Below, in pieces: positions 2,728 through 39,909 of a stretch of 64,000 bases of DNA. Below the pieces are notes generated by a model, which had not been told where the DNA came from, ran no database searches, and saw nothing but the letters and a program-made list of their open reading frames with translations. How positions within the stretch are numbered: position 1 is the first letter of the stretch; each line of letters starts with the position of its first letter. The translations under genes and the position numbers were made by a program. The DNA comes from Escherichia coli O127:H6 str. E2348/69 (GTDB taxonomy: Bacteria; Pseudomonadota; Gammaproteobacteria; Enterobacterales; Enterobacteriaceae), in the NCBI RefSeq assembly GCF_000026545.1, contig NC_011601.1; one strand, given 5' to 3'.

Positions 2728-4101
2728 TTAACTCCGCTTATACAGCGGCAACCAAATCACCAGCCGTAAACCGCCCAGCGGGCTGTCTTCTGCCTTCACC
2801 CAGCCACGATGCTGCTGAATGGCGGTTTCTACAATCGCCAGCCCCAAACCTGTACCGCCAGATTCACGATCGCGTGCTTCATCGGTCCGATAGAATGGAC
2901 GGAAAATCTGTTCGCGATCTTCCGGGCTAACGCCAGGACCATCGTCGTCCACCGTAATGGTGATACCGTCTTTATCTACCGCAAAGCCCACTTCAATCTT
3001 CGTATGGGAATAACGCAGAGCATTACGAACAATGTTTTCCAGCGCACTTTCCAGGGCGTTCGGGTTGCCGTACAGCGGCCACGGCCCAGGTGGGAAGTTA
3101 ACCGTCAACGACTTGCCCATTTGCTCGGCTTCGAACGCCGCGTTATCCAGCACTTCACTCCACAACTGGTTGGCTTTGATGGTCTCGCTAACCAGCGCAT
3201 TTTTCTGCTGATTACGTGACATCACCAACAGATCGTTGATCATGCTGTCCAGACGTTGCGCTTCGGTTTCAATACGCTCCAGTTCCTTGCTTTCACCGCT
3301 ACGACGGCGCAGTAACGCCGTACCCAGTTGCAGACGCGTCAGCGGGGTGCGCAGTTCGTGAGAGATATCAGAAAGTAGACGCTGCTGAGAGGTCATCATG
3401 CGCTCCAGCGCGGTGACCATCTGGTTAAAACTGGCACCGGCGGCAAGGAATTCCTGTGGCCCCGCTTCCAGTTCCGGGTGCTGGCGTAAGTTTCCCTGGG
3501 CAACTTCATCGGCAGCGTTTTTCAGCTTACGCGCCGGTTTTGCCAGACTCCAGGCCAACCACAACAGCAGCGGCGTACTGACCAGCATGGTGACAATCAG
3601 CAGTAATAGCGGGCGGTCAAACAGTAAGTTGATGAAATCGGATTGAGAACTGCTGGCCGGACGAATCAGATAAAGTTGGTAATTATCTTCGCCATCACGC
3701 ACGGAGAACGGACCGACCAGTTCCACGCGGCCATACTTTTTCTTCTGCGGATGATCGGCGTTATCGGCCTGACCAATAAAGTTACGAATGATCTGCATTT
3801 CGCTGCGTTCAGCGCCGATCACGCGGCCTTCGGTGGTCACCAGTAACAAACGCTGTCCTGGCGGTGCCCACTTATCAATCGCCCGGAACAGACGCCGCCA
3901 CCACATTAAATCGTTGGGCGGATCGTTCGCCAGCTCCGCTTCGACATGCTGCTCAATCATCAGACCCTGACGCTGTTCGCTATCCAGAAGCTCGGTCATC
4001 TGGCGTGAATCGAGCTTGGGTAACATCAAAACCAACATCAACACCAGCGCCAGCGTCAGCCAGAAGATGGCGAAGATGCGCGCGGTTAAGCTGCCTATCA
4101 T
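2728..4101 (-). CDS. cpxA: Envelope-stress sensor histidine kinase CpxA
   Basis: 457-aa ORF; two TM segments, HAMP, H-box (SHELRTPLTRL) and ATPase motifs; overlaps cpxR stop by 4 bp. Confidence 0.95.
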   Translation of the reverse strand: MIGSLTARIFAIFWLTLALVLMLVLMLPKLDSRQMTELLDSEQRQGLMIEQHVEAELANDPPNDLMWWRRLFRAIDKWAPPGQRLLLVTTEGRVIGAERSEMQIIRNFIGQADNADHPQKKKYGRVELVGPFSVRDGEDNYQLYLIRPASSSQSDFINLLFDRPLLLLIVTMLVSTPLLLWLAWSLAKPARKLKNAADEVAQGNLRQHPELEAGPQEFLAAGASFNQMVTALERMMTSQQRLLSDISHELRTPLTRLQLGTALLRRRSGESKELERIETEAQRLDSMINDLLVMSRNQQKNALVSETIKANQLWSEVLDNAAFEAEQMGKSLTVNFPPGPWPLYGNPNALESALENIVRNALRYSHTKIEVGFAVDKDGITITVDDDGPGVSPEDREQIFRPFYRTDEARDRESGGTGLGLAIVETAIQQHRGWVKAEDSPLGGLRLVIWLPLYKRS

Positions 4102-28796: not shown

Positions 28797-31229
28797 ATGA
28801 GTGTGATTGCGCAGGCAGGGGCGAAAGGTCGTCAACTGCATAAATTTGGTGGCAGTAGTCTGGCTGATGTGAAGTGTTATTTGCGTGTCGCGGGCATTAT
28901 GGCGGAGTACTCTCAGCCTGACGATATGATGGTGGTTTCCGCCGCCGGTAGCACCACTAACCAGTTGATTAACTGGTTGAAACTAAGCCAGACCGATCGT
29001 CTCTCTGCGCATCAGGTTCAACAAACATTACGTCGTTATCAGTGCGATCTGATTAGCGGCCTGCTACCCGCCGAAGAAGCCGATAACCTCATTAGCGCTT
29101 TTGTCAGCGATCTTGAGCGCCTGGCGGCGTTGCTCGACAGCGGTATTAACGATGCGGTGTATGCGGAAGTGGTGGGCCACGGTGAAGTGTGGTCGGCGCG
29201 CCTGATGTCTGCGGTGCTTAATCAACAAGGGCTGCCATCGGCCTGGCTTGATGCCCGCGAGTTTTTACGCGCTGAACGCGCTGCGCAACCGCAGGTTGAT
29301 GAAGGGCTTTCGTACCCGTTGCTGCAACAGCTACTGGTACAACATCCGGGCAAACGTCTGGTGGTGACCGGGTTTATCAGCCGTAACAACGCCGGTGAAA
29401 CGGTGCTGCTTGGGCGTAACGGTTCCGACTATTCCGCGACACAAATCGGTGCGCTGGCGGGTGTTTCTCGCGTAACCATCTGGAGTGACGTCGCCGGGGT
29501 ATATAGCGCCGACCCGCGTAAAGTGAAAGATGCCTGCCTGCTGCCGTTGCTGCGTCTGGATGAAGCCAGCGAACTGGCGCGTCTGGCGGCTCCCGTTCTT
29601 CATGCCCGTACTTTACAGCCCGTTTCTGGCAGCGAAATCGACCTGCAACTGCGCTGTAGCTACACGCCGGATCAAGGTTCCACGCGCATTGAACGCGTGC
29701 TGGCCTCCGGTACTGGTGCGCGTATTGTCACCAGCCATGATGATGTCTGCTTGATTGAGTTTCAGGTGCCCGCCAGCCAGGATTTCAAACTGGCGCATAA
29801 AGAGATCGACCAGATCCTGAAACGTGCTCAGGTGCGCCCACTGGCGGTTGGCGTGCATAACGATCGCCAGTTGCTGCAATTTTGCTACACCTCAGAAGTG
29901 GCCGACAGTGCGCTGAAAATCCTCGACGAAGCGGGATTACCTGGCGAACTGCGCCTGCGTCAGGGGCTGGCGCTGGTGGCGATGGTTGGGGCGGGCGTCA
30001 CCCGTAACCCGCTGCATTGCCACCGCTTCTGGCAGCAACTGAAAGGCCAGCCGGTCGAGTTTACCTGGCAGTCTGATGATGGCATCAGCCTGGTGGCAGT
30101 ACTGCGCACCGGCCCGACCGAAAGCCTGATTCAGGGGCTGCATCAGTCCGTCTTCCGCGCGGAAAAACGCATCGGCCTGGTATTGTTCGGTAAGGGCAAT
30201 ATCGGTTCCCGCTGGCTGGAACTGTTCGCCCGTGAGCAGAGTACGCTTTCGGCACGTACCGGCTTTGAATTTGTGCTGGCAGGCGTGGTGGACAGCCGCC
30301 GCAGCCTGTTGAGCTATGACGGGCTGGACGCCAGCCGCGCGTTAGCCTTCTTCAACGATGAAGCGGTCGAGCAGGATGAAGAGTCGCTGTTCCTGTGGAT
30401 GCGCGCCCACCCGTATGATGATTTAGTGGTGCTGGACGTTACCGCCAGCCAGCAGCTCGCTGACCAGTATCTTGATTTCGCCAGCCACGGTTTCCACGTC
30501 ATCAGTGCCAACAAACTGGCAGGAGCGAGCGACAGCAATAAATATCGCCAGATCCACGACGCCTTCGAAAAAACCGGGCGTCACTGGCTGTACAATGCCA
30601 CTGTCGGTGCGGGTTTGCCGATCAACCATACCGTGCGCGATCTGATCGACAGCGGCGATACCATTTTGTCGATCAGTGGGATCTTCTCTGGCACGCTCTC
30701 CTGGCTGTTCCTGCAATTCGACGGTAGCGTGCCGTTTACCGAACTGGTGGATCAGGCGTGGCAGCAGGGCTTAACCGAGCCTGACCCGCGTGATGACCTT
30801 TCCGGCAAAGACGTGATGCGCAAGCTGGTGATTCTGGCGCGTGAAGCGGGTTACAACATTGAACCGGACCAGGTACGTGTTGAATCACTGGTACCTGCCC
30901 ATTGCGAAGGCGGCAGCATCGACCATTTCTTTGAAAATGGCGATGAACTTAACGAGCAGATGGTGCAACGACTGGAAGCGGCCCGCGAAATGGGGCTGGT
31001 GCTGCGCTACGTGGCGCGTTTCGATGCCAATGGCAAAGCGCGTGTGGGCGTGGAAGCGGTGCGTGAAGACCATCCGCTGGCATCACTACTGCCATGCGAT
31101 AACGTCTTTGCCATCGAAAGCCGCTGGTATCGCGACAACCCGCTGGTGATCCGCGGGCCAGGTGCAGGGCGCGACGTCACCGCCGGGGCGATTCAGTCGG
31201 ATATCAACCGGCTGGCGCAGTTGTTGTAG
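28797..31229 (+). CDS. metL: Bifunctional aspartokinase II / homoserine dehydrogenase II
   Basis: 810-aa ORF starting 3 bp after the metB stop; MSVIAQAGAKGRQLHKFGGSSLADVKCYLRVAG. Confidence 0.95.
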   Translation: MSVIAQAGAKGRQLHKFGGSSLADVKCYLRVAGIMAEYSQPDDMMVVSAAGSTTNQLINWLKLSQTDRLSAHQVQQTLRRYQCDLISGLLPAEEADNLISAFVSDLERLAALLDSGINDAVYAEVVGHGEVWSARLMSAVLNQQGLPSAWLDAREFLRAERAAQPQVDEGLSYPLLQQLLVQHPGKRLVVTGFISRNNAGETVLLGRNGSDYSATQIGALAGVSRVTIWSDVAGVYSADPRKVKDACLLPLLRLDEASELARLAAPVLHARTLQPVSGSEIDLQLRCSYTPDQGSTRIERVLASGTGARIVTSHDDVCLIEFQVPASQDFKLAHKEIDQILKRAQVRPLAVGVHNDRQLLQFCYTSEVADSALKILDEAGLPGELRLRQGLALVAMVGAGVTRNPLHCHRFWQQLKGQPVEFTWQSDDGISLVAVLRTGPTESLIQGLHQSVFRAEKRIGLVLFGKGNIGSRWLELFAREQSTLSARTGFEFVLAGVVDSRRSLLSYDGLDASRALAFFNDEAVEQDEESLFLWMRAHPYDDLVVLDVTASQQLADQYLDFASHGFHVISANKLAGASDSNKYRQIHDAFEKTGRHWLYNATVGAGLPINHTVRDLIDSGDTILSISGIFSGTLSWLFLQFDGSVPFTELVDQAWQQGLTEPDPRDDLSGKDVMRKLVILAREAGYNIEPDQVRVESLVPAHCEGGSIDHFFENGDELNEQMVQRLEAAREMGLVLRYVARFDANGKARVGVEAVREDHPLASLLPCDNVFAIESRWYRDNPLVIRGPGAGRDVTAGAIQSDINRLAQLL

Positions 31230-31241
31230 TGATTATTGAAC

Positions 31242-31269
31242 AAAAGCTGGCAGTTGCCAGCTTTTGTTG
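31242..31269 (+). terminator. Rho-independent terminator downstream of metL
   Basis: AAAAGCTGGCA-GT-TGCCAGCTTTTGTTG. Confidence 0.8.
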
Positions 31270-31329
31270 TCACCCCTAAACCTCTTCCTGGGGAAGTGGT
31301 GATTGATTGTCATTTTGCCTTTGGTCAGT

Positions 31330-31353
31330 GCCCCCGGTAATAAGGGGGCTTTT
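31330..31353 (+). terminator. Second hairpin plus T-run at the left edge of the metL-metF accessory region
   Basis: GCCCCC-GGTAATAA-GGGGGC followed by TTTTG. Confidence 0.4.
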
Positions 31354-31446
31354 GTGTTGAGCGATGAAGTAACAGAGTGAATGGTGAAGTTATTAATGAC
31401 AATTACAAAATGACATTAAGTAACAATATCTAAAATGTCACCTAAT

Positions 31447-32307
31447 TTAAAATTGATAACCAATAGTAGTATAGGTTCCCCATCCTGTATTTTTTAATTC
31501 AAATGGACCATCTCCGAAGTTAACCTTCTCTCCCGCATTCCATTGTCCACCGTTGTGAAAATAACGTAGTGTAAATGCAAATTTCCAGTGTTCATATAGA
31601 AGGGAAAGGATATGGCTTGAAGCAATAGCATTACTGGTTCGTTTATTATTGTGTGACTTGTCCGCAAGATCGGAGCCAAAATCAAAGTTAGTAAAACTAT
31701 TGTATACCAATCGTCCTCCGAATAAATTTGTAAGAGGGATGCTATATTTTATTTTGAATCGATATCCGTCCCATTCATTTTCATTAGCGGCACCATAGTT
31801 TTGCCACTGATACTTGGCGTATATATTGGCAGAAAGCTTAATTGGTAGACCCGTGTCGATATCTGTACCAAGCCCCATATACCATGTACTTTGCCGGGAT
31901 GACTGGTTGTCACCCATATCATAGACATAGTTGTTTGCAATGAACCATTCTTTAAATGGGCCGAACGCAAGATTTAATCCGGTCAATTTGTCAATGGAAA
32001 ACCGAGGTTCTATTTCCGTAAATAGTGGTGAGCCCTCATCCCAGATCCCAACATCATAGTGACTGCCGACGCCAAAGAATTTCGGTAGATCAACATAACC
32101 ATAAAAATCAAACCAGTCTTTTCTTCCTGCTACAGTATATTCAGGGTAGAGGTCGTTAGTCAGTCTTGGGCCAAAGCGAGAGTCTGTGCGACCAATGACA
32201 TTCAAGCTTTGATGTAACCAGCTTTCATCAATTTTAATTTCCTGAGCGTTTCCAATGCAAGGTATTAATAGAATGGATAAAGCTATCCAGTGCTTTTTTA
32301 TATACAT
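31447..32307 (-). CDS. Tsx/OmpK-family outer-membrane nucleoside-specific channel (accessory paralog)
   Basis: 286-aa ORF; N-terminal signal peptide ([21 protein letters not shown]|QE), aromatic-rich beta-barrel-like sequence, C-terminal ...GYQF ending in Phe as in Tsx; last gene of a minus-strand three-gene cluster. Confidence 0.6.
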
Positions 32308-32383
32308 AAATATATCTCTTATATATTGTTGATTTAGAGAGAAATAATGTCATCCAGTGAATGAATGGTATTATAAGTTTTTG

Positions 32384-34009
32384 TTATTTGCTTACTTCTA
32401 CCCGCATTTCATTTACCTGTGCAGGAGTAATCTTGTGGCCTTTCTTAAAATAATCGATTACGACATTGGACATGTTATTTCCGGCGCGGACCTGGACATT
32501 TTTCCCTTCTTTGAATGCCAGAAAACCATCGCCCCCAAGTGCAAGGAAAGTCGTAGTCGCAACATGGTAAATATTCGTATCAACGATCTCTTCACCATTA
32601 ATTTTAAAAGATACAATGCGCTGACCTACTGGTTTCTGCAGGGTATAGCGCATTTCTGCGCCTTTTGACATTTGCAGGATGCCATTGGTAAGCGATGCCC
32701 CGTGCTCCAGTAGGTTACGCAGATCCTTACCGCTGAGATCCATTTCAGTAAGTTCATTCTTGAAGGGGAATGTACTGGTAATGTCACCAAAGGTAATCGT
32801 GCCTGCATTTATATCAGCACGTAAACTGCCGGAGTTTATCAACGCAATTTGTGCAGTCGGTGCAGCGACAAGCATTGCATCGGTAAACAGGTTGCCAAGT
32901 TGCGATGACTCACCGTAGGCACGAGTTAATGCAATCGATGATTCACCGACTGGTTGGCGTACAATATCCGCCAGTTTTTTATTCCAGCCATTGATAACTT
33001 TTTGTGTGGTTGGATCGGGTATCCATTCATCGGCATAAACCGTTTTCAGCTCAAAGCTCTTCACTTTATGAGTACGAGCTGTAGGGTTGACATCAAGGAT
33101 TAATTTACCAATATCGATACCGCCACTGTCAGTCGAAAGGATTAAGGTGTTGCCGACTTTGATTGGTTCTGGCGTTCCGACGTGGGCATGCCCGGTAATC
33201 AGAATATCCAATCCTTTCACCTTGCTTGCGGTTTGAATATCTTTATCCAGCGCACGTCTAACATCTGTATTGCCAATGCTGGACTGACGCGCCGGTACGC
33301 CTTCATGAACCAGCGCCACGGTGAGGTCAACCTTATCACGTAACTCGTCGATATAATGCTGCAAATACTTCACTTCATCACGTGCTTCAATCCCCTGATT
33401 CTTGAGGGTCGCGGAAGATTTATCAAATCGGTTATTATTGTCATTATCGAGTCCCTGGAGAGAGAGCTCCGAGACCGTGTCATTAAATGCAAATACGCCG
33501 TGTAGCCCAACAATACCAATCTTGATGCCATCTTTTTCCAGGATGGTGTAGGGCTTGTTCCAGAAGGGTTTCTCACTCTCTTTATGATAAACATTGCCTA
33601 ATAAAACAGGGAAATTCGCTTTGCTTAATTGTCGGAGGGCATTATCCCAGCCATGGTCAAACTCATGATTACCGATTGATACTGCGTCAAAAGGCATGGT
33701 ATTCATAATATCAATTATTGCTTCGCCCTTTGTCAGGCTACTGATATATGGCCCGGTGAAATAGTCTCCAGCATCAAAATAAAAGGTGGCTTTATTTTTG
33801 GCTTTCTCTTGTTTTACTAACGTGGATATATTGGCAAAGCCACCAATGTCGCGTTTTCCGTCTGCGACATACGGTACTTTATAGGAATCCACATGAGCGT
33901 GAAGATCATTGGTATAAATAATCGTGACATCCTGCGCCATGACTGAGGTCGAAAAAATAGTCAGCAATGTTGCGGCAAGTAAAGTACGCTGCGCTGTTTT
34001 CATTCGCAT
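32384..34009 (-). CDS. Secreted UshA-like bifunctional metallophosphatase/5'-nucleotidase, paralog 1
   Basis: 541-aa ORF; signal peptide ...SVMA|QDV; calcineurin-like motifs [26 protein letters not shown]; C-terminal 5'-nucleotidase domain (GNLFTDAM, FPFKNEL). Confidence 0.8.
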   Translation of the reverse strand: MRMKTAQRTLLAATLLTIFSTSVMAQDVTIIYTNDLHAHVDSYKVPYVADGKRDIGGFANISTLVKQEKAKNKATFYFDAGDYFTGPYISSLTKGEAIIDIMNTMPFDAVSIGNHEFDHGWDNALRQLSKANFPVLLGNVYHKESEKPFWNKPYTILEKDGIKIGIVGLHGVFAFNDTVSELSLQGLDNDNNNRFDKSSATLKNQGIEARDEVKYLQHYIDELRDKVDLTVALVHEGVPARQSSIGNTDVRRALDKDIQTASKVKGLDILITGHAHVGTPEPIKVGNTLILSTDSGGIDIGKLILDVNPTARTHKVKSFELKTVYADEWIPDPTTQKVINGWNKKLADIVRQPVGESSIALTRAYGESSQLGNLFTDAMLVAAPTAQIALINSGSLRADINAGTITFGDITSTFPFKNELTEMDLSGKDLRNLLEHGASLTNGILQMSKGAEMRYTLQKPVGQRIVSFKINGEEIVDTNIYHVATTTFLALGGDGFLAFKEGKNVQVRAGNNMSNVVIDYFKKGHKITPAQVNEMRVEVSK

Positions 34010-34043
34010 TCCTTGTTAAATAAATTGACTGATAAATGAGATT

Positions 34044-35597
34044 TTATTTGGCGACGTCCATGACTCGTTTAGTTAAGTCTGGGGTGACAGGTTTATGATT
34101 TTTGAAATAATCGATGATAGATTCCGCCGAGGTTGTTCCCGGTATCGTCTTCACATTTTTTCCATTCAAAAATGCTTCAAAACCGTCACCACCACTGGCA
34201 CAAAAGGAGTGCGTGGCAATACGATATGTTTGATTATCTTCCACGGGTTTGCCGTTAATGGTGAAAGAGATTAACCGTTGGTTGAGTGGTTTTTTGCTGT
34301 CATAGACAACCGCAACGCTTTTTGAAACCTGTAACACACCGTTAGTTAGATTGGTTGCATGCGTCATCAATGATTTGAGATCGCGGCCCGTCAAATCCAT
34401 CTCGATGAGGTCATTATTAAAGGGGAATGTGCTAATAACATCTCCCAGTGTGATATCGCCTTTAGGAAAATCAGCTCGCATCCCACCGCTATTTTGAAAT
34501 CCGGCAACGGCATCAGGTGTTTTTTCCATCATTGCATCAAGAATAAGGTTGCCGGTAGAAGAGGAACTACCATACTCACGTGTTAAAACTATGGGAGAAT
34601 GGCCGACAACTTCCTGTGTTATTTTGTTAAGCTGTGCACTCCATTTATCAATAGTATTTTGAACGATGGTGTCAGGTTTAAATTGATCTGCAAAGATGGT
34701 GATTAACTCACCATTATAACTATCAATTTTCTTCGTTTTCGGATTGTAATCAAGCACAAGTTTTCCGATGTTGGTGCCGTATGCATCGGTAGATACAATT
34801 AATGTGTTATTAACTTTTATTGGTTGCGGTGTTCCGACATGTGCGTGACCGGTAATTAAGACATCAACACCATTCACTTTTTTAGCTGTCTCAATATCTG
34901 CCTGTAGTAGCCGCTCCACATCTTTACTACCAAAGCTTGATTGACGCGCCGGGACACCTTCGTGAATTAGCAAAACGGTAATGTCGACTTTACCTTTTAA
35001 TTCTGCAAGTGCTTTATTTAAAAATTTAATTTCGTCTCTGGCTTCTACGCCTTCACGTGCTTTTGCCGCGACAGTATCATAGAAAGCGAATGCGCCATGC
35101 AATCCAATCACACCAATCTTTAAACCATCTTTTTCGATAATGGTCCACGGATGATCCCAAACTGGTTTATTCGTATCGGTGTAGTAGATATTTCCCAGCA
35201 GAATGGGGAATTTTGCTTTTGATAACTGAGACACCATATTGGGCACACCGTGATCGAACTCGTGATTACCAACAGACACCGCATCAAAGGGCATAGTGTT
35301 CATGATATCAATAATAGCTTCACCTTTGGTCAGTGTGCTGATATACGGCCCGGTAAAATAGTCGCCTGCATCAAAGAAAAACACATCTTTGCTTTTTTTC
35401 TTCGCTTCATTAACGATGCCTGCAATATTAGCCATACCACCTATAAGTCTGTTCTTATCAACAGCGATGATTTTTGCCGGATTGACATGTGCGTGAATGT
35501 CATTCGTATAATAAATAGTAACGTCCTGAGCTAGAACACTGTGAGAAAATATCACGCCGAATATGACTGATAATGTTGTAAATACAGTTTTCATCAT
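34044..35597 (-). CDS. Secreted UshA-like bifunctional metallophosphatase/5'-nucleotidase, paralog 2
   Basis: 517-aa ORF; signal peptide ...SVLA|QDV; motifs [33 protein letters not shown]; more divergent from paralogs 1 and 3. Confidence 0.8.
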   Translation of the reverse strand: MMKTVFTTLSVIFGVIFSHSVLAQDVTIYYTNDIHAHVNPAKIIAVDKNRLIGGMANIAGIVNEAKKKSKDVFFFDAGDYFTGPYISTLTKGEAIIDIMNTMPFDAVSVGNHEFDHGVPNMVSQLSKAKFPILLGNIYYTDTNKPVWDHPWTIIEKDGLKIGVIGLHGAFAFYDTVAAKAREGVEARDEIKFLNKALAELKGKVDITVLLIHEGVPARQSSFGSKDVERLLQADIETAKKVNGVDVLITGHAHVGTPQPIKVNNTLIVSTDAYGTNIGKLVLDYNPKTKKIDSYNGELITIFADQFKPDTIVQNTIDKWSAQLNKITQEVVGHSPIVLTREYGSSSSTGNLILDAMMEKTPDAVAGFQNSGGMRADFPKGDITLGDVISTFPFNNDLIEMDLTGRDLKSLMTHATNLTNGVLQVSKSVAVVYDSKKPLNQRLISFTINGKPVEDNQTYRIATHSFCASGGDGFEAFLNGKNVKTIPGTTSAESIIDYFKNHKPVTPDLTKRVMDVAK

Positions 35598-35642
35598 CCC
35601 TCCTAGATAGGGGGTGTTACATTTGTTGAATTATTTAAATAA

Positions 35643-35659
35643 AAGACACATCGTGTCTT
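35643..35659. promoter_or_regulatory. Perfect 7-3-7 palindrome AAGACAC-ATC-GTGTCTT between the Cys-rich gene and nucleotidase paralog 2 (candidate operator or weak terminator)
   Basis: Exact inverted repeat read directly from the sequence, ~50 bp upstream of the paralog-2 start codon and ~170 bp downstream of the Cys-rich gene stop. Confidence 0.45.
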
Positions 35660-35691
35660 ATTTTATGTAAGCATAGTTCAGAAAAGTATTG

Positions 35692-35707
35692 TGTGATCTT
35701 AGTAACA
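35692..35707. promoter_or_regulatory. CRP-like site upstream of the nucleotidase-2 / nucleotidase-1 / tsx-like cluster
   Basis: TGTGA-TCTTAG-TAACA: one perfect half-site and one half-site with a single mismatch to TGTGA-N6-TCACA. Confidence 0.45.
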
Positions 35708-35826
35708 AATAATGTTATTAATTAAACATTGACCATGATTATATTTCACGGTCATACATTTATATATTTAATTAAATGAAAGGTAGTGATCTCTCTTAAT
35801 TTATGGTCGTTTGTCGAGTGTATTGA

Positions 35827-36951
35827 CTAACAAGATGGAGTGAGCGATTCATTGTATTTTAACGCCAGTGAGGTCAGCATTTGCGTTACGCGACCTGCGG
35901 ATAATAACGCGCTTTGGGTAAAGTCGTGTTGGTCTGTCAGCCATGTGATAAAACAACGACTGGTTGCCAGAGAAACATTTGCGCCCCTTTCTAAGCAGGC
36001 TCCCGTGAGTAGGCAGACCATCTTGCAGTTATTCCCCTGCTCCCAGCGCTGCCACTGATTTTGCCACCAACCATGGTATGTCGTTCCCTTAAAATGCCAG
36101 GGCGTATCAGCGTTACTGTCACTGATTTCTTCTTCTACGAACCAAAGTTCACCTTGTTGTTGGCGGAACTGATCTGCCCAGGCTGTAATAATTGCGCCTC
36201 TTAGAAAACATTCGTGTGAAATAATATGCGTTTTGACATCTGGATAGCGGATTTTCAGTATTCTGAAATGCCCGTGTGCCTTGATAACCGGGCGTAGTAT
36301 GGCTCCCTTACCGTTGCGCTTGAGTACAGCACTGCCATACTGAATTTCATCGAACTGGCTCCGGCGCAAGAATTGCGCTTCACGCATATCTACCTTCTGC
36401 ACGATATCGCGATGGTGCATAGTTGGTTCTGTGTTGCCCTTGTAACTGTACCGCAGACTGTCTCCTGTCTGATGTTGCGTATAATTCGTGGAGAGATGAA
36501 GAATGTTGCCACGAGTGGCGTCAAGACTGACTAAAACATACAGTTTTTGTACTGCGCTGGCCCCTTGAAAGGGTATGAACAGTTGAACGGTTTCAATGGC
36601 CTGGGGATGCGTAATTTCTTTCTGATATTTTTTAGGCGTCCAGACTTTTTTGCAGTTACGGCATTGAATGCGTTGCGAACCCTGTGGATTGTGACCATAA
36701 CAAATCATGTCTGTGCCATAACATACCGGGCAGAAATGGCCTTTCTCAATTGCATAAGTAGACAAGTGAACTGACAACCAGTCACGAAATTGTTGCTCGT
36801 CAAACAACGGCGGGTAACTGCCACATGCCCGACAGTGCAGTGCCGGATAACCCAGTTTATAGTCTGGCCAACTGTAATCTTCCGATGAGGCCAATCCCAA
36901 ATTTCGGCAACCGAACGTTTTACAGGCATTAATCGTAAACAGAGTCGACAT
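35827..36951 (-). CDS. Hypothetical cysteine-rich protein with two putative N-terminal zinc ribbons and a Trp-rich C-terminal domain
   Basis: 374-aa ORF; Cys clusters C-x4-C...C-x2-C and C-x2-C-x17-C-x2-C (HFCPVCYG...IQCRNCKK); no signal peptide; not recognised as any K-12 protein; AT-rich flanking intergenic regions. Confidence 0.6.
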   Translation of the reverse strand: MSTLFTINACKTFGCRNLGLASSEDYSWPDYKLGYPALHCRACGSYPPLFDEQQFRDWLSVHLSTYAIEKGHFCPVCYGTDMICYGHNPQGSQRIQCRNCKKVWTPKKYQKEITHPQAIETVQLFIPFQGASAVQKLYVLVSLDATRGNILHLSTNYTQHQTGDSLRYSYKGNTEPTMHHRDIVQKVDMREAQFLRRSQFDEIQYGSAVLKRNGKGAILRPVIKAHGHFRILKIRYPDVKTHIISHECFLRGAIITAWADQFRQQQGELWFVEEEISDSNADTPWHFKGTTYHGWWQNQWQRWEQGNNCKMVCLLTGACLERGANVSLATSRCFITWLTDQHDFTQSALLSAGRVTQMLTSLALKYNESLTPSC

Positions 36952-37008
36952 ATATCACCAACGATTTCACAAGGTCGTTGATTTTGTCCGGCAACTATCC
37001 CCTGCGGA

Positions 37009-37024
37009 TGTGATTACTCTCACA
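37009..37024. promoter_or_regulatory. Consensus CRP binding site in the divergent promoter between the Cys-rich gene and nucleotidase paralog 3
   Basis: TGTGA-TTACTC-TCACA, a perfect match to both CRP half-sites with 6-bp spacer, ~55-70 bp from both divergent start codons. Confidence 0.6.
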
Positions 37025-37077
37025 TAAATAAGTCTTTCAGAACGTAATGTAGCAATCCTTTATCTCACTGAAAGGGA

Positions 37078-38637
37078 TTGTTTATGAAAATTAAAATACT
37101 TGCTGCGGGTATCGCATTAACACTGCCGTTCTGGGCTTGCGCTAAAGATGTCACTATTATTTATACCAACGACCTCCATGCGCATGTAGAACCTTATAAA
37201 GTGCCGTGGATCGCTGACGGTAAACGGGATATTGGCGGCTGGGCAAATATCACTACGCTGGTTAAGCAAGAAAAAGCAAAAAATAAAGCGACATGGTTTT
37301 TTGATGCGGGCGACTATTTTACCGGGCCATATATCAGCAGCCTGACCAAAGGTAAGGCTATTATCGATATTATGAATACTATGCCGTTTGATGCCGTCAC
37401 AATAGGCAACCATGAATTTGACCACGGCTGGGACAACACATTATTACAGTTGAGCCAGGCAAAATTCCCTATTGTGCAGGGCAATATTTTTTATCAGAAC
37501 AGCAGTAAATCATTCTGGGATAAGCCCTATACCATCATCGAAAAAGACGGCGTGAAAATTGGCGTTATAGGTTTGCACGGAGTATTTGCCTTCAATGATA
37601 CGGTATCTGCTGCCACGCGCGTGGGTATTGAAGCGCGCGATGAAATTAAATGGCTACAACGTTATATCGATGAACTCAAAGGCAAGGTTGATTTGACCGT
37701 CGCCCTGATCCACGAAGGTGTTCCAGCCCGCCAGTCCAGTATGGGAGGCACAGATGTGCGTCGCGCGTTGGATAAAGATATTCAGACGGCAAGTCAGGTG
37801 AAAGGGCTGGATATTTTGATCACCGGACATGCACATGTGGGTACGCCGGAACCGATTAAAGTCGGCAATACGCTCATCCTCTCCACTGACAGCGGCGGGA
37901 TTGATGTGGGCAAACTGGTTCTCGACTACAAAGAGAAGCCGCATAATTTTACGGTGAAAAACTTCGAGCTTAAAACCATTTACGCTGACGAGTGGAAGCC
38001 CGATCTGCAAACGAAACAGGTGATCGACGGCTGGAATAAAAAGCTTGATGAAGTGGTGCAACAAACGGTGGCGCAATCGCCGGTTGAATTAAAACGTGCC
38101 TATGGTGAATCGGCTTCCCTCGGGAACCTGGCGGCTGACGCCTTACTGGCAGCAGCGGGTAAAAATACCCAACTGGCTTTAACAAACTCTGGTGGTATCC
38201 GCAATGAGATCCCCGCAGGGGCGATCACGATGGGCGGCGTCATCAGTACCTTCCCGTTCCCCAACGAACTGGTGACGATGGAACTCACGGGTAAACAATT
38301 ACGCAGTCTGATGGAACACGGCGCAAGTTTAAGCAATGGCGTTTTACAGGTATCGAAAGGCCTGGAAATGAAGTACGACAGCAGCAAGCCGGTTGGTCAG
38401 CGGGTAATCACACTGACTCTGAATGGCAAACCCATTGAAGATGCGACGGTTTATCACATTGCTACTCAGAGTTTCCTTGCTGATGGTGGAGATGGTTTTA
38501 CCGCCTTTACCGAAGGGAAAGCGCGTAACACAACGGGCGGTTATTACGTTTATCACGCGGTGGTTGATTACTTCAAAGCGGGCAACACCATTACGGATGA
38601 ACAGCTCAACGGTATGCGCGTGAAGGATATCAAATAA
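37078..38637 (+). CDS. Secreted UshA-like bifunctional metallophosphatase/5'-nucleotidase, paralog 3
   Basis: 519-aa ORF; signal peptide ...FWACA|KDV; motifs [33 protein letters not shown]; closest to paralog 1. Confidence 0.8.
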
Positions 38638-38947
38638 AAGTGCGCACTGAATTGACTCAACCGTTTGTTACCCGTTGATTGCGCAGATCCTGTATTCGGC
38701 CTACGCGAGGGCGCAGGCCGAATCAGATGCCTTAGCATCACCATCCGGTGGCAGGACGTTGTTTTTAGAATTAGCCCAGGTGTCGCTGTGTTGTCAGAAT
38801 ATGAGTCAAAACGTGCGAGGTGGATTGCGCTATAGAGAAATCTTTTATCGCCTCTAATTAAGATGAGTTTTTTTCATCTTCCCTGATTTTTCCTCACCAT
38901 CATTGGTTATTTTTCGGTTGACGCCCTTCGGCTTTTCCTTCATCTTT

Positions 38948-39015: not shown

Positions 39016-39909
<894 letters not shown>

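Follow-up and report, generated by a model that had tools for sequence, protein, structure and literature searches.

Within a 64,000-nucleotide stretch of the genome of Escherichia coli O127:H6 strain E2348/69 (NC_011601.1; this whole stretch is called the window below), three genes for UshA-like nucleotidases, here named P1, P2 and P3, lie in one accessory island between metL and metF, and the question raised by this locus is whether they are recent copies of one another or genes of separate history, and what they would do together. The explanation that best fits the whole of the data, and which we hold to be probable, is that phylogroup-B2-type E. coli have in this region a strain-variable nucleotide- and nucleoside-scavenging island that was put together in two layers. 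A preliminary description of the three genes was accurate and largely ordinary: the island is annotated and already catalogued, the enzyme superfamily is well known and one crystal structure exists. What is added here is incremental, and consists of the ancient paralogy of the three genes, the two layers with a mapped breakpoint, the selected insertion in P1 and a conserved site for the cyclic AMP receptor protein (cAMP-CRP).

The limits of the island (31230-38868, 7.64 kb) were set by base composition and by comparison with K-12. It lies between metL (28797-31229) and metF (39019-39909), its GC content was 0.39-0.48 against 0.51 for the whole window, and homology to K-12 ended at 31228 and restarted at 38869. 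In place of the island, K-12 has approximately 199 bp with a palindromic element resembling repetitive extragenic palindromes (REP-like); this empty site (positions 2802-3000 of the K-12 locus) also holds an annotated hypothetical open reading frame of 44 amino acids (aa). The five island genes are a tsx paralog, P1, P2, a gene of 374 codons (orf374) and P3. Among 5426 complete E. coli genomes the whole island was present in 658 and P3 in 1840, at one place per genome wherever it was found. A repeat search revealed neither direct nor inverted repeats at the island boundaries, and an Rfam scan of the island returned zero RNA families. A GC-rich hairpin after metL (31330-31349) could terminate transcription in both directions, of metL and of the tsx-like gene; this hairpin aside, a generic promoter and terminator scan of the island performed no better than on shuffled sequence and was not used.

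The literature search found a single description of the island, made in silico (PMC12928451, PLoS One 2026), whose passages on it name it GR31 (metL..metF) of avian pathogenic E. coli (APEC) BEN2908, call four genes, record it in all of the B2 extraintestinal pathogenic (ExPEC) and adherent-invasive (AIEC) strains compared there and its absence from MG1655, and propose a coordinated nucleoside processing and transport system. The paralog relations, the P1 insertion, the two-layer origin, the CRP site and the family of orf374 do not figure in those passages.

The three nucleotidases

P1 (32384-34003, minus strand, 539 aa), P2 (34044-35594, minus strand, 516 aa) and P3 (37084-38637, plus strand, 517 aa; the orthologue of CFT073 c4898) were, as first described, full-length UshA-like genes with Metallophos and 5_nucleotid_C domains; their RefSeq starts lie 2-3 codons inside the coordinates of the preliminary description, which are those of maximal open reading frames. 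For P1 the Pfam matches were PF00149 (E 1e-10) and PF02872 (E 2e-36), and the precomputed Pfam hits of the P1, P2 and P3 homologue clusters agreed with this architecture. Each protein begins with a Sec-type signal peptide (...SVMA/QD in P1, ...SVLA/QD in P2 and ...WACA/KD in P3), which argues for a periplasmic location of these 5'-nucleotidase-family enzymes. P1 and P3 were 67% identical at the protein level, and P2, 56% identical to both, was the most divergent of the three, as had been noted, and the most AT-rich. As DNA, P1 and P3 were 66.5% identical with a longest exact match of 17 nucleotides (nt), and were recovered in the repeat search as inverted repeats of 461-508 nt; across all pairs, nucleotide identity was 58-67% and the longest exact match 17-20 nt.

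The earlier statement that metal and substrate motifs are kept in all three proteins held, as alignment showed no catalytic residue lost. D35, H37, D79/D82, N114-H115-D118, H235 and H274/H276, together with R363, N392, R397, F414/F416, D494 and F496 (541-aa numbering), were invariant in P1, P2 and P3. The metal-site motifs (DxH, DxxGD, GNHE(F)D, H, GHxH/Q/N) were invariant both in the three proteins and in 51 homologues, as were, in these homologues, R361, N390, R395 and F414 (539-aa numbering), with F494 present in at least 90%. The ratio of non-synonymous to synonymous substitution rates (dN/dS) against orthologues was 0.03-0.08 for P3 and ~0.05-0.06 for P1, and P2, which has no close orthologue outside E. 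coli, gave a ratio of the corresponding proportions of differences (pN/pS) of ~0.23, measured at saturation. Purifying selection appears to act on all three genes and, with the full catalytic apparatus intact, their products are probably active rather than decaying, as was first suggested.

Against the UshA model NF007109, P1, P2 and P3 scored 156, 165 and 152 bits where the cut-off is 600, and the CpdB, NadN and SoxB models gave 80-156 bits where the cut-offs are 486-883, 436 and 550, respectively. Because no score reached any of these cut-offs, we would place the three proteins in a separate subfamily of the UshA/CD73 superfamily, and not among UshA orthologues. P3 was ~99.6% identical over residues 19-517 to PDB entries 3IVD/3IVE ('Putative 5'-nucleotidase (c4898)'), a 2009 structural-genomics entry for the CFT073 protein with uridine and cytidine bound, and the 3IVD construct begins at the predicted signal-peptide cleavage point. 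Literature searches by PDB code and by the CFT073 locus tags c4894-c4898 gave nothing relevant, and no paper on 3IVD/3IVE was found. The AlphaFold model of P1 (predicted local distance difference test, pLDDT, 86.8; predicted template modelling score, pTM, 0.85) matched 3IVD with a target-normalised template modelling (TM) score of 0.95 (Foldseek E 2e-86), and matched CD73 and UshA at E ~1e-43.

The same scores bear on what the enzymes cleave. There is some chance, though we think it the lesser one, that at least one of them is not mainly a 5'-mononucleotidase and that the paralogs split chemically different substrates, not just bases; 2',3'-cyclic or 3'-nucleotides, nicotinamide adenine dinucleotide (NAD), uridine diphosphate (UDP)-sugars and cyclic or linear dinucleotides may be the other substrates. 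This possibility gains from the best NCBIfam match of all three proteins, which was the subfamily of multifunctional cyclic-nucleotide phosphodiesterase/3'-/5'-nucleotidases (far below its cut-off), and from the similarity of their scores on the UshA, SoxB, NadN and CpdB models, again all far below cut-off. UshA, CpdB, NadN, SoxB and YfkN are superfamily members which together cover all of these chemistries. It loses from the crystallisation of P3 with uridine and cytidine, which are plain nucleoside products, and from the presence of the C-terminal Phe-Phe clamp and of the Arg and Asn phosphate and ribose ligands found in enzymes specific for nucleoside 5'-monophosphates (5'-NMP).

The insertion in P1

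Among the three paralogs P1 alone carries the insertion ELSLQGLDNDNNNRFDKSSATLKNQ (33395-33469, minus strand; residues 179-203 of 539), so that the segment first described as unique to this paralog is real; its 25 residues replace five (AATRV in P3, AKARE in P2), however, and the net gain is 20 aa rather than about 25. The arms of the P1/P3 inverted repeat are interrupted exactly at this point, where P1 has 75 nt and P3 has 15 nt between them, and the repeat search gave no repeat origin for the insertion. All of the proteins that group with P1 (from E. coli, Citrobacter, Enterobacter and E. albertii, with overall identities of 81-99%) have the insertion, invariant in length and nearly so in sequence (ELS[LI][QK]GLDN[DN][NKE][NS][NH]RF[DS]KS[SAG][AE][TAS]LKNQ); it appears to define the whole P1 clade and not a strain. 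Compared with four orthologues, its 25 codons showed 10-11 synonymous and 3-4 non-synonymous changes, with a dN/dS of 0.02-0.05 (against 0.05-0.06 in the rest of P1) at a dS of 1.4-2.4. With so few non-synonymous changes beside so many synonymous ones, the insertion is evidently selectively maintained and is not a drifting linker, and its initial description as a low-complexity segment calls for refinement, since conservation of this kind across genera is not that of a mere linker.

Hidden Markov model (HMM) alignments of P1 to CD73, the venom 5'-nucleotidase, UshA and 2Z1A all break at the loop bearing the insertion, and the flanking anchors (..GIVGY / LEFxDE..) set it opposite TSKETPFLSNPGTN of CD73, at about residues 177-190. 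In the closed state of CD73, the carbonyl of Leu184 contacts adenine N6, and Ser185 and Asn186 of the N-lobe form a pocket used by N6-substituted inhibitors (PMC8677862, PMC8403083). On this alignment the P1 insertion would sit in the N-lobe loop equivalent to the nucleobase-cleft loop of CD73 (Leu184-Asn186), a loop that closes over the edge of the base, and there it would most likely enlarge or cap the base or leaving-group side of the cleft and reshape substrate specificity. As a secondary reading, capping of the nucleobase cleft may give the P1 clade a substrate class that is closed to other 5'-nucleotidases.

It seems to us unlikely that the insertion is instead a disordered surface loop of low complexity, functionally neutral and without bearing on either catalysis or specificity. 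The insertion is indeed rich in Asn and Asp and has no secondary structure in the AlphaFold model, where its pLDDT is 33-36; it falls in the most length-variable segment of the family, the one at which the HMM alignments break; and a natural P3 allele which acquired it by gene conversion (see below) keeps an intact reading frame. A neutral loop would nevertheless have drifted, and neither an invariant length nor a dN/dS of 0.02-0.05 at near-saturated dS (1.4-2.4) is what drift would leave.

Assembly of the island and age of its paralogs

To obtain the order of genes in other genomes, the proteins of the window were compared by tblastn with 80 loci, taken from contigs of one genome per species. 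A pair formed by orf374 (minus strand) and P3 (plus strand) was found between metL and metF in Citrobacter youngae, C. braakii, C. werkmanii and C. portucalensis, and likewise in Kluyvera, Phytobacter, Kosakonia, Pseudocitrobacter, Superficieibacter, E. whittamii and a 'short form' of the locus in E. coli. From this synteny in at least 8 genera, orf374/P3 appears to be the ancestral pair at metL-metF. Enterobacter asburiae, E. albertii and Citrobacter have genes like P1, P2 and tsx as well, and one E. coli strain has them at a second locus; in these clusters the order is orf374<- ->P3 ->P2 (->P2') ->tsx' ->P1, whereas in the window the cassette (P2->P1->tsx) lies on the opposite side of orf374; the tsx' genes of the other-genus clusters were only 57-58% identical to the tsx-like gene of the window. 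These clusters hold up to four nucleotidases each, and the P1 of E. albertii appears truncated. E. coli SCPM-O-B-8794 has five nucleotidases in its genome, with the short form at metL-metF and an unlinked locus of four more paralogs and tsx'.

Aligning the window with the short form of E. coli revealed a sharp step in identity within orf374. Right of ~36,680, where the 5' 270 nt of orf374 are followed by the promoter region, P3 and metF, identity was 87-100% per 100 nt and mostly 97-100% from 36,980; from 35,864 to ~36,680, the 3' 800 nt of orf374, it was 62-82%; and left of 35,864 there was no homology to the short form, which runs straight into the metL stop codon and lacks P2-P1-tsx. A step of this kind is the mark left by homologous recombination with a breakpoint inside orf374 (36580-36780, near 36,680), with resident DNA to its right and acquired DNA to its left. 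The first, resident layer of the island would then be the divergent pair orf374 <-> P3 between metL and metF, with a shared promoter region and its CRP site, and the second a P2->P1->tsx-like cassette that would have entered later by homologous recombination, bringing with it the foreign 3' part of orf374.

The gradient in GC content at third codon positions (GC3) and the excess of genomes with P3 (1840) over those with the full island (658) support the two layers. P3 was described at the outset as less AT-rich than P1 and P2, and its GC3 was 0.519, against 0.437 for P1, 0.380 for P2, 0.35 for the tsx-like gene and 0.58-0.65 for the flanking core genes; the binomial standard error is only ~0.02 at ~520 codons per gene, and the differences are therefore real. 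The different acquisition histories which this composition had been taken to hint at are now supported by stronger evidence than GC alone, namely the identity step in orf374, the synteny at metL-metF and the short form without P2-P1-tsx.

A reverse course of events, in which the long island was the ancestral state in E. coli and the short form and the empty form of K-12 arose by successive deletions, we give only a small chance. It fits this course that K-12 clearly lacks the whole region, and that such cassettes are old in the family, since multi-nucleotidase clusters of E. albertii, Enterobacter and Citrobacter also include genes like P1, P2 and tsx. Deletion cannot, however, explain 800 nt at the 3' end of orf374 with 62-82% identity beside 97-100% to the right of them; the arrangement kept in synteny at metL-metF by at least 8 other genera is the short and not the long one; the GC3 of P1, P2 and tsx is lower than that of P3; and other genera have both a different cassette order and a different tsx allele.

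Some of the results tell against a scavenging island assembled in two layers. A donor with the exact order P2-P1-tsx was not found among the 80 loci searched, and as an alternative to a dated acquisition the long and short forms could be old, co-existing alleles. No curated equivalog cut-off is reached by the enzymes, whose substrates could be 3'-nucleotides, cyclic nucleotides, NAD, UDP-sugars or dinucleotides. Residues 179-202 of the P1 insertion are modelled as coil at pLDDT below 50 (values of 33-36), and its placement with respect to the active site comes from the alignment with CD73, not from coordinates.

The age of the paralogs was approached through synonymous divergence and phylogeny. 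Synonymous differences between the three genes were saturated, with values of 0.65-1.0 per site (pS) throughout each pairwise comparison in windows of 60 codons, and the non-synonymous divergence of P1 and P3 was low in the catalytic N-domain (pN 0.03-0.08). The long similar stretches first noticed between P1 and P3 thus stand at the protein level (67%) but not at the DNA level (66.5%, with synonymous sites saturated), and reflect constraint, not recent duplication or gene conversion in E2348/69. In a rooted neighbour-joining tree (510 columns, 200 bootstraps), the enterobacterial sequences were monophyletic with respect to homologues from Cetobacterium, Bacteroidota, SAR86, Acidobacteriota and Paenibacillus (bootstrap 79-100), and the possibility that the three genes came separately from distant phyla was rejected on this ground. 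P3 formed a clade with a bootstrap of 100, as did P1 with its orthologues from Citrobacter, Enterobacter and the second E. coli locus; the sister of the P1 clade (95) was an Atlantibacter/Citrobacter clade without the insertion, and P2 fell in a separate superclade (98) with Siccibacter, Salmonella arizonae and the 'b' genes of other clusters. On this tree the insertion has a single origin, on the branch leading to the P1 clade. With synonymous sites saturated and each paralog clade holding orthologues from other genera, P1, P2 and P3 are ancient paralogs whose duplications were old events within the enterobacterial lineage. The dS of P3 was 0.05 within E. coli, 0.24 to E. whittamii and ~2 to Citrobacter, so it tracks species distance and is consistent with vertical descent. 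It is accordingly very improbable that the three are recent tandem or inverted duplicates of this lineage, diverging or decaying unequally, however much their adjacency, equal lengths, near-identical protein stretches and the 461-508-nt inverted repeats of P1 and P3 may suggest it, since synonymous sites are saturated over the full length, nucleotide identity is 58-67% with no exact match beyond 17-20 nt, each paralog clusters with orthologues of other genera and not with its neighbours, and catalytic residues are intact at a dN/dS of ~0.03-0.08.

Comparison of pS and pN in 60-codon windows detected no gene conversion among the three genes of the window. In E. coli GCA_001520995.1, the gene at the position of P3 (3398-5011 of the locus) was 96-100% identical to P1 at nt ~300-700 and P3 in its remainder; this tract of ~400 nt includes the 60-nt insertion, and the contig ends just past P2, at about the point where P1 would begin. 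The allele is best read as a natural mosaic, in which a tract of P1, which lies inverted to P3, has replaced that of P3 by gene conversion. The P1 orthologues of other genera have a signal peptide of P3 type, whereas that of P1 in the window is of the ...AQD type common to P2 and the Atlantibacter clade. The mosaic allele and this pattern of signal peptides together indicate that patchy conversion occurs in the family. A metagenome-assembled genome labelled Citrobacter sp. HRGM_Genome_0066 carries a P3 99% and an orf374 88% identical to those of the window, and its contig is either a mis-binned E. coli contig or another orf374 mosaic allele.

The orf374 gene, regulation and comparison with known systems

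The most unusual element of the region is orf374 (35827-36951, minus strand, 374 aa), which lies between P2 and P3, divergent from P3, and is annotated as a 'hypothetical/cytoplasmic protein'. No Pfam domain was found in it. Its product comprises two N-terminal zinc (Zn) ribbons and an RNase-H-like core of the DDE transposase/integrase type; it scored 22.5 bits on transpos_IS1 (cut-off 100) and 23.2 on a Zn-domain model (cut-off 28), and PHROGs gave weak Zn-ribbon and transposase matches. A profile search of 1.84 billion representatives recovered only 426 relatives, many of them of 400-530 aa with an extra segment resembling a helix-turn-helix (HTH) after the second Zn ribbon; the close homologues are confined to Enterobacteriaceae and named just 'cytoplasmic protein'. 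The initiator Met, C10, C15, Y26, C40, C43, C97, C100, R197, H228 and W300 were invariant in the family, and the position of the first DDE Asp (D144) varied between D, E, S, G, N and C. Neither terminal nor flanking inverted repeats were found in the repeat search, and the gene is single-copy and syntenic, its partner P3 occupying one place in each E. coli genome that carries it. Because the first Asp is not conserved, terminal repeats were not found and the gene is single-copy and syntenic, orf374 looks like a domesticated transposase, and it differs from DDE transposases of the IS1/IS1595 and Mutator types in its single, syntenic copy, in the terminal inverted repeats that the search did not find, in a first Asp that varies across the family, in scores far below the transposase cut-offs and in its constant proximity to nucleoside or nucleotide salvage genes.

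The neighbourhoods of distant orf374 relatives were informative in six contigs (a seventh was too short to show neighbours), and all six placed the relative next to nucleoside or nucleotide salvage genes. Three relatives directly follow a nucleotidase with Metallophos and 5_nucleotid_C domains; one lies beside a DeoB-like enzyme, PNP_UDP and a NupG-type symporter, one beside a NupC-type transporter and PNP_UDP, and one beside a NupC-type transporter, adenosine deaminase and PNP_UDP. Enterobacterial orf374 itself pairs with nucleotidases of both the P3 and the Atlantibacter type. We offer it tentatively, and with rather less than even confidence, that orf374 represents an undescribed family derived by domestication of a DDE transposase, which would serve as a dedicated regulator, the most economical reading, or as another obligatory cytoplasmic partner of nucleoside and nucleotide scavenging genes in Gammaproteobacteria and beyond.

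The 126-bp intergenic region between orf374 and P3 contains TGTGATTACTCTCACA (37009-37024), a perfect match to the CRP consensus, centred 68 nt upstream of the P3 ATG and the sole zero-mismatch CRP site in the window. Its half-sites lie 68-70 nt from the nucleotidase ATG in 18/20 loci from at least 8 genera, even before the distant Atlantibacter-type genes, with the N6 spacer free to vary. Conservation of half-sites and spacing around a variable spacer argues for selection on the CRP site, and hence for catabolite control, and P3 is predicted from this site to be under CRP. Catabolite (CRP) control is established for the tsx, cpdB, deo, udp, cdd and nup genes. A second element of the same divergent promoter region, the palindrome CAACGA-N10-TCGTTG (36959-36980), has arms conserved in P3-type intergenic alignments from many genera and is a candidate operator, at which the orf374 protein of enterobacteria would act with cAMP-CRP to control the divergent nucleotidase gene. 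The palindrome did not recur upstream of P2 or tsx and was not enriched elsewhere in the window. An operator shared by both operons was also considered, and was left unsupported by the lack of a copy upstream of P2 or tsx. Upstream of P2, ~105 nt before the start codon, is a CRP-like site with one mismatch, TGTGATCTTAGTAACA (35692-35707), which is a weak candidate because of that mismatch and because CRP-like sites were only marginally in excess window-wide (5 against 1.9 expected, with 5/100 shuffles reaching 5).

The intergenic gaps within P2-P1-tsx are 34 and 76 bp, and such short gaps suggest an operon with the tsx paralog (31447-32307, minus strand, 286 aa) as its last gene. The product of this gene, an outer-membrane nucleoside-specific channel, scored 492.8 bits over residues 2-286 on NF011686 (cut-off 311). 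A second Tsx could alter sensitivity to Tsx-dependent phages (T6) or colicin K, or be a decoy.

Taken as a scavenging system, P1, P2 and P3, which would have diverged in substrate preference, would dephosphorylate periplasmic nucleotides or related phosphoesters; the nucleosides so released would pass to the nucleoside transporters of the inner membrane; a greater flux of nucleosides across the outer membrane would come from the extra Tsx channel; and expression would be tied to carbon limitation through cAMP-CRP. The significance of this is modest: B2 pathogens, including enteropathogenic (EPEC; E2348/69), uropathogenic (UPEC), neonatal meningitis (NMEC), avian pathogenic and adherent-invasive E. 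coli, have assembled a triple nucleotidase set and a second Tsx, plausibly as a fitness trait for scavenging nucleotides from the inflamed gut, the urinary tract and host-cell lysates. More speculatively, the enzymes could affect mucosal signalling by extracellular adenosine tri- and monophosphate (ATP, AMP) and adenosine, which would be relevant to EPEC. With three enzymes, one solved structure and one selected loop insertion, the island is also a natural experiment in paralog specialisation. Of wider value is a transposase-fold family consistently tied to nucleoside-salvage genes, and, should orf374 prove to be a regulator, it would clearly exemplify the domestication of a transposase in bacteria.

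Among known systems the tsx-like gene is closest to E. coli Tsx (PDB 1TLW/1TLY), with which its product aligns end to end (1TLW, E 7e-115), over the whole barrel; it is a member of the same family, as a second and island-encoded copy, and an identity of 67% to Tsx is given in the passages on GR31 (PMC12928451). The tsx' genes of the Enterobacter, Citrobacter and E. albertii cassettes are a further Tsx paralog, of a third type. For the nucleotidases the nearest structure is 3IVD/3IVE, which has the same two-domain fold, is 66-67% identical to P1 and, as P3, lacks the P1 insertion. E. coli UshA (1USH, 1HP1) is periplasmic, as the island enzymes are predicted to be, and shares with them a Metallophos N-domain bearing the dinuclear metal motifs (DxH, GD, GNHE, H, GHxH/Q), a 5_nucleotid_C domain, a Phe clamp and a hinge-bending mechanism, but it is only ~20% identical to P1, P2 and P3, its last metal motif is GHSQ where that of the island enzymes is GHAH, and it is a core gene whereas they are accessory. 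Human CD73 is 24-25% identical, and the P1 model fits its closed state best (query-normalised TM ~0.75); the catalytic residues match, with N390, R395, F414 and F494 of P1 aligned to N390, R395, F417 and F500 of CD73. Unlike the island enzymes, CD73 is a glycosylphosphatidylinositol (GPI)-anchored eukaryotic dimer, and the loop that lines its nucleobase cleft has 14 residues, where P3 has 17 and P1 37.

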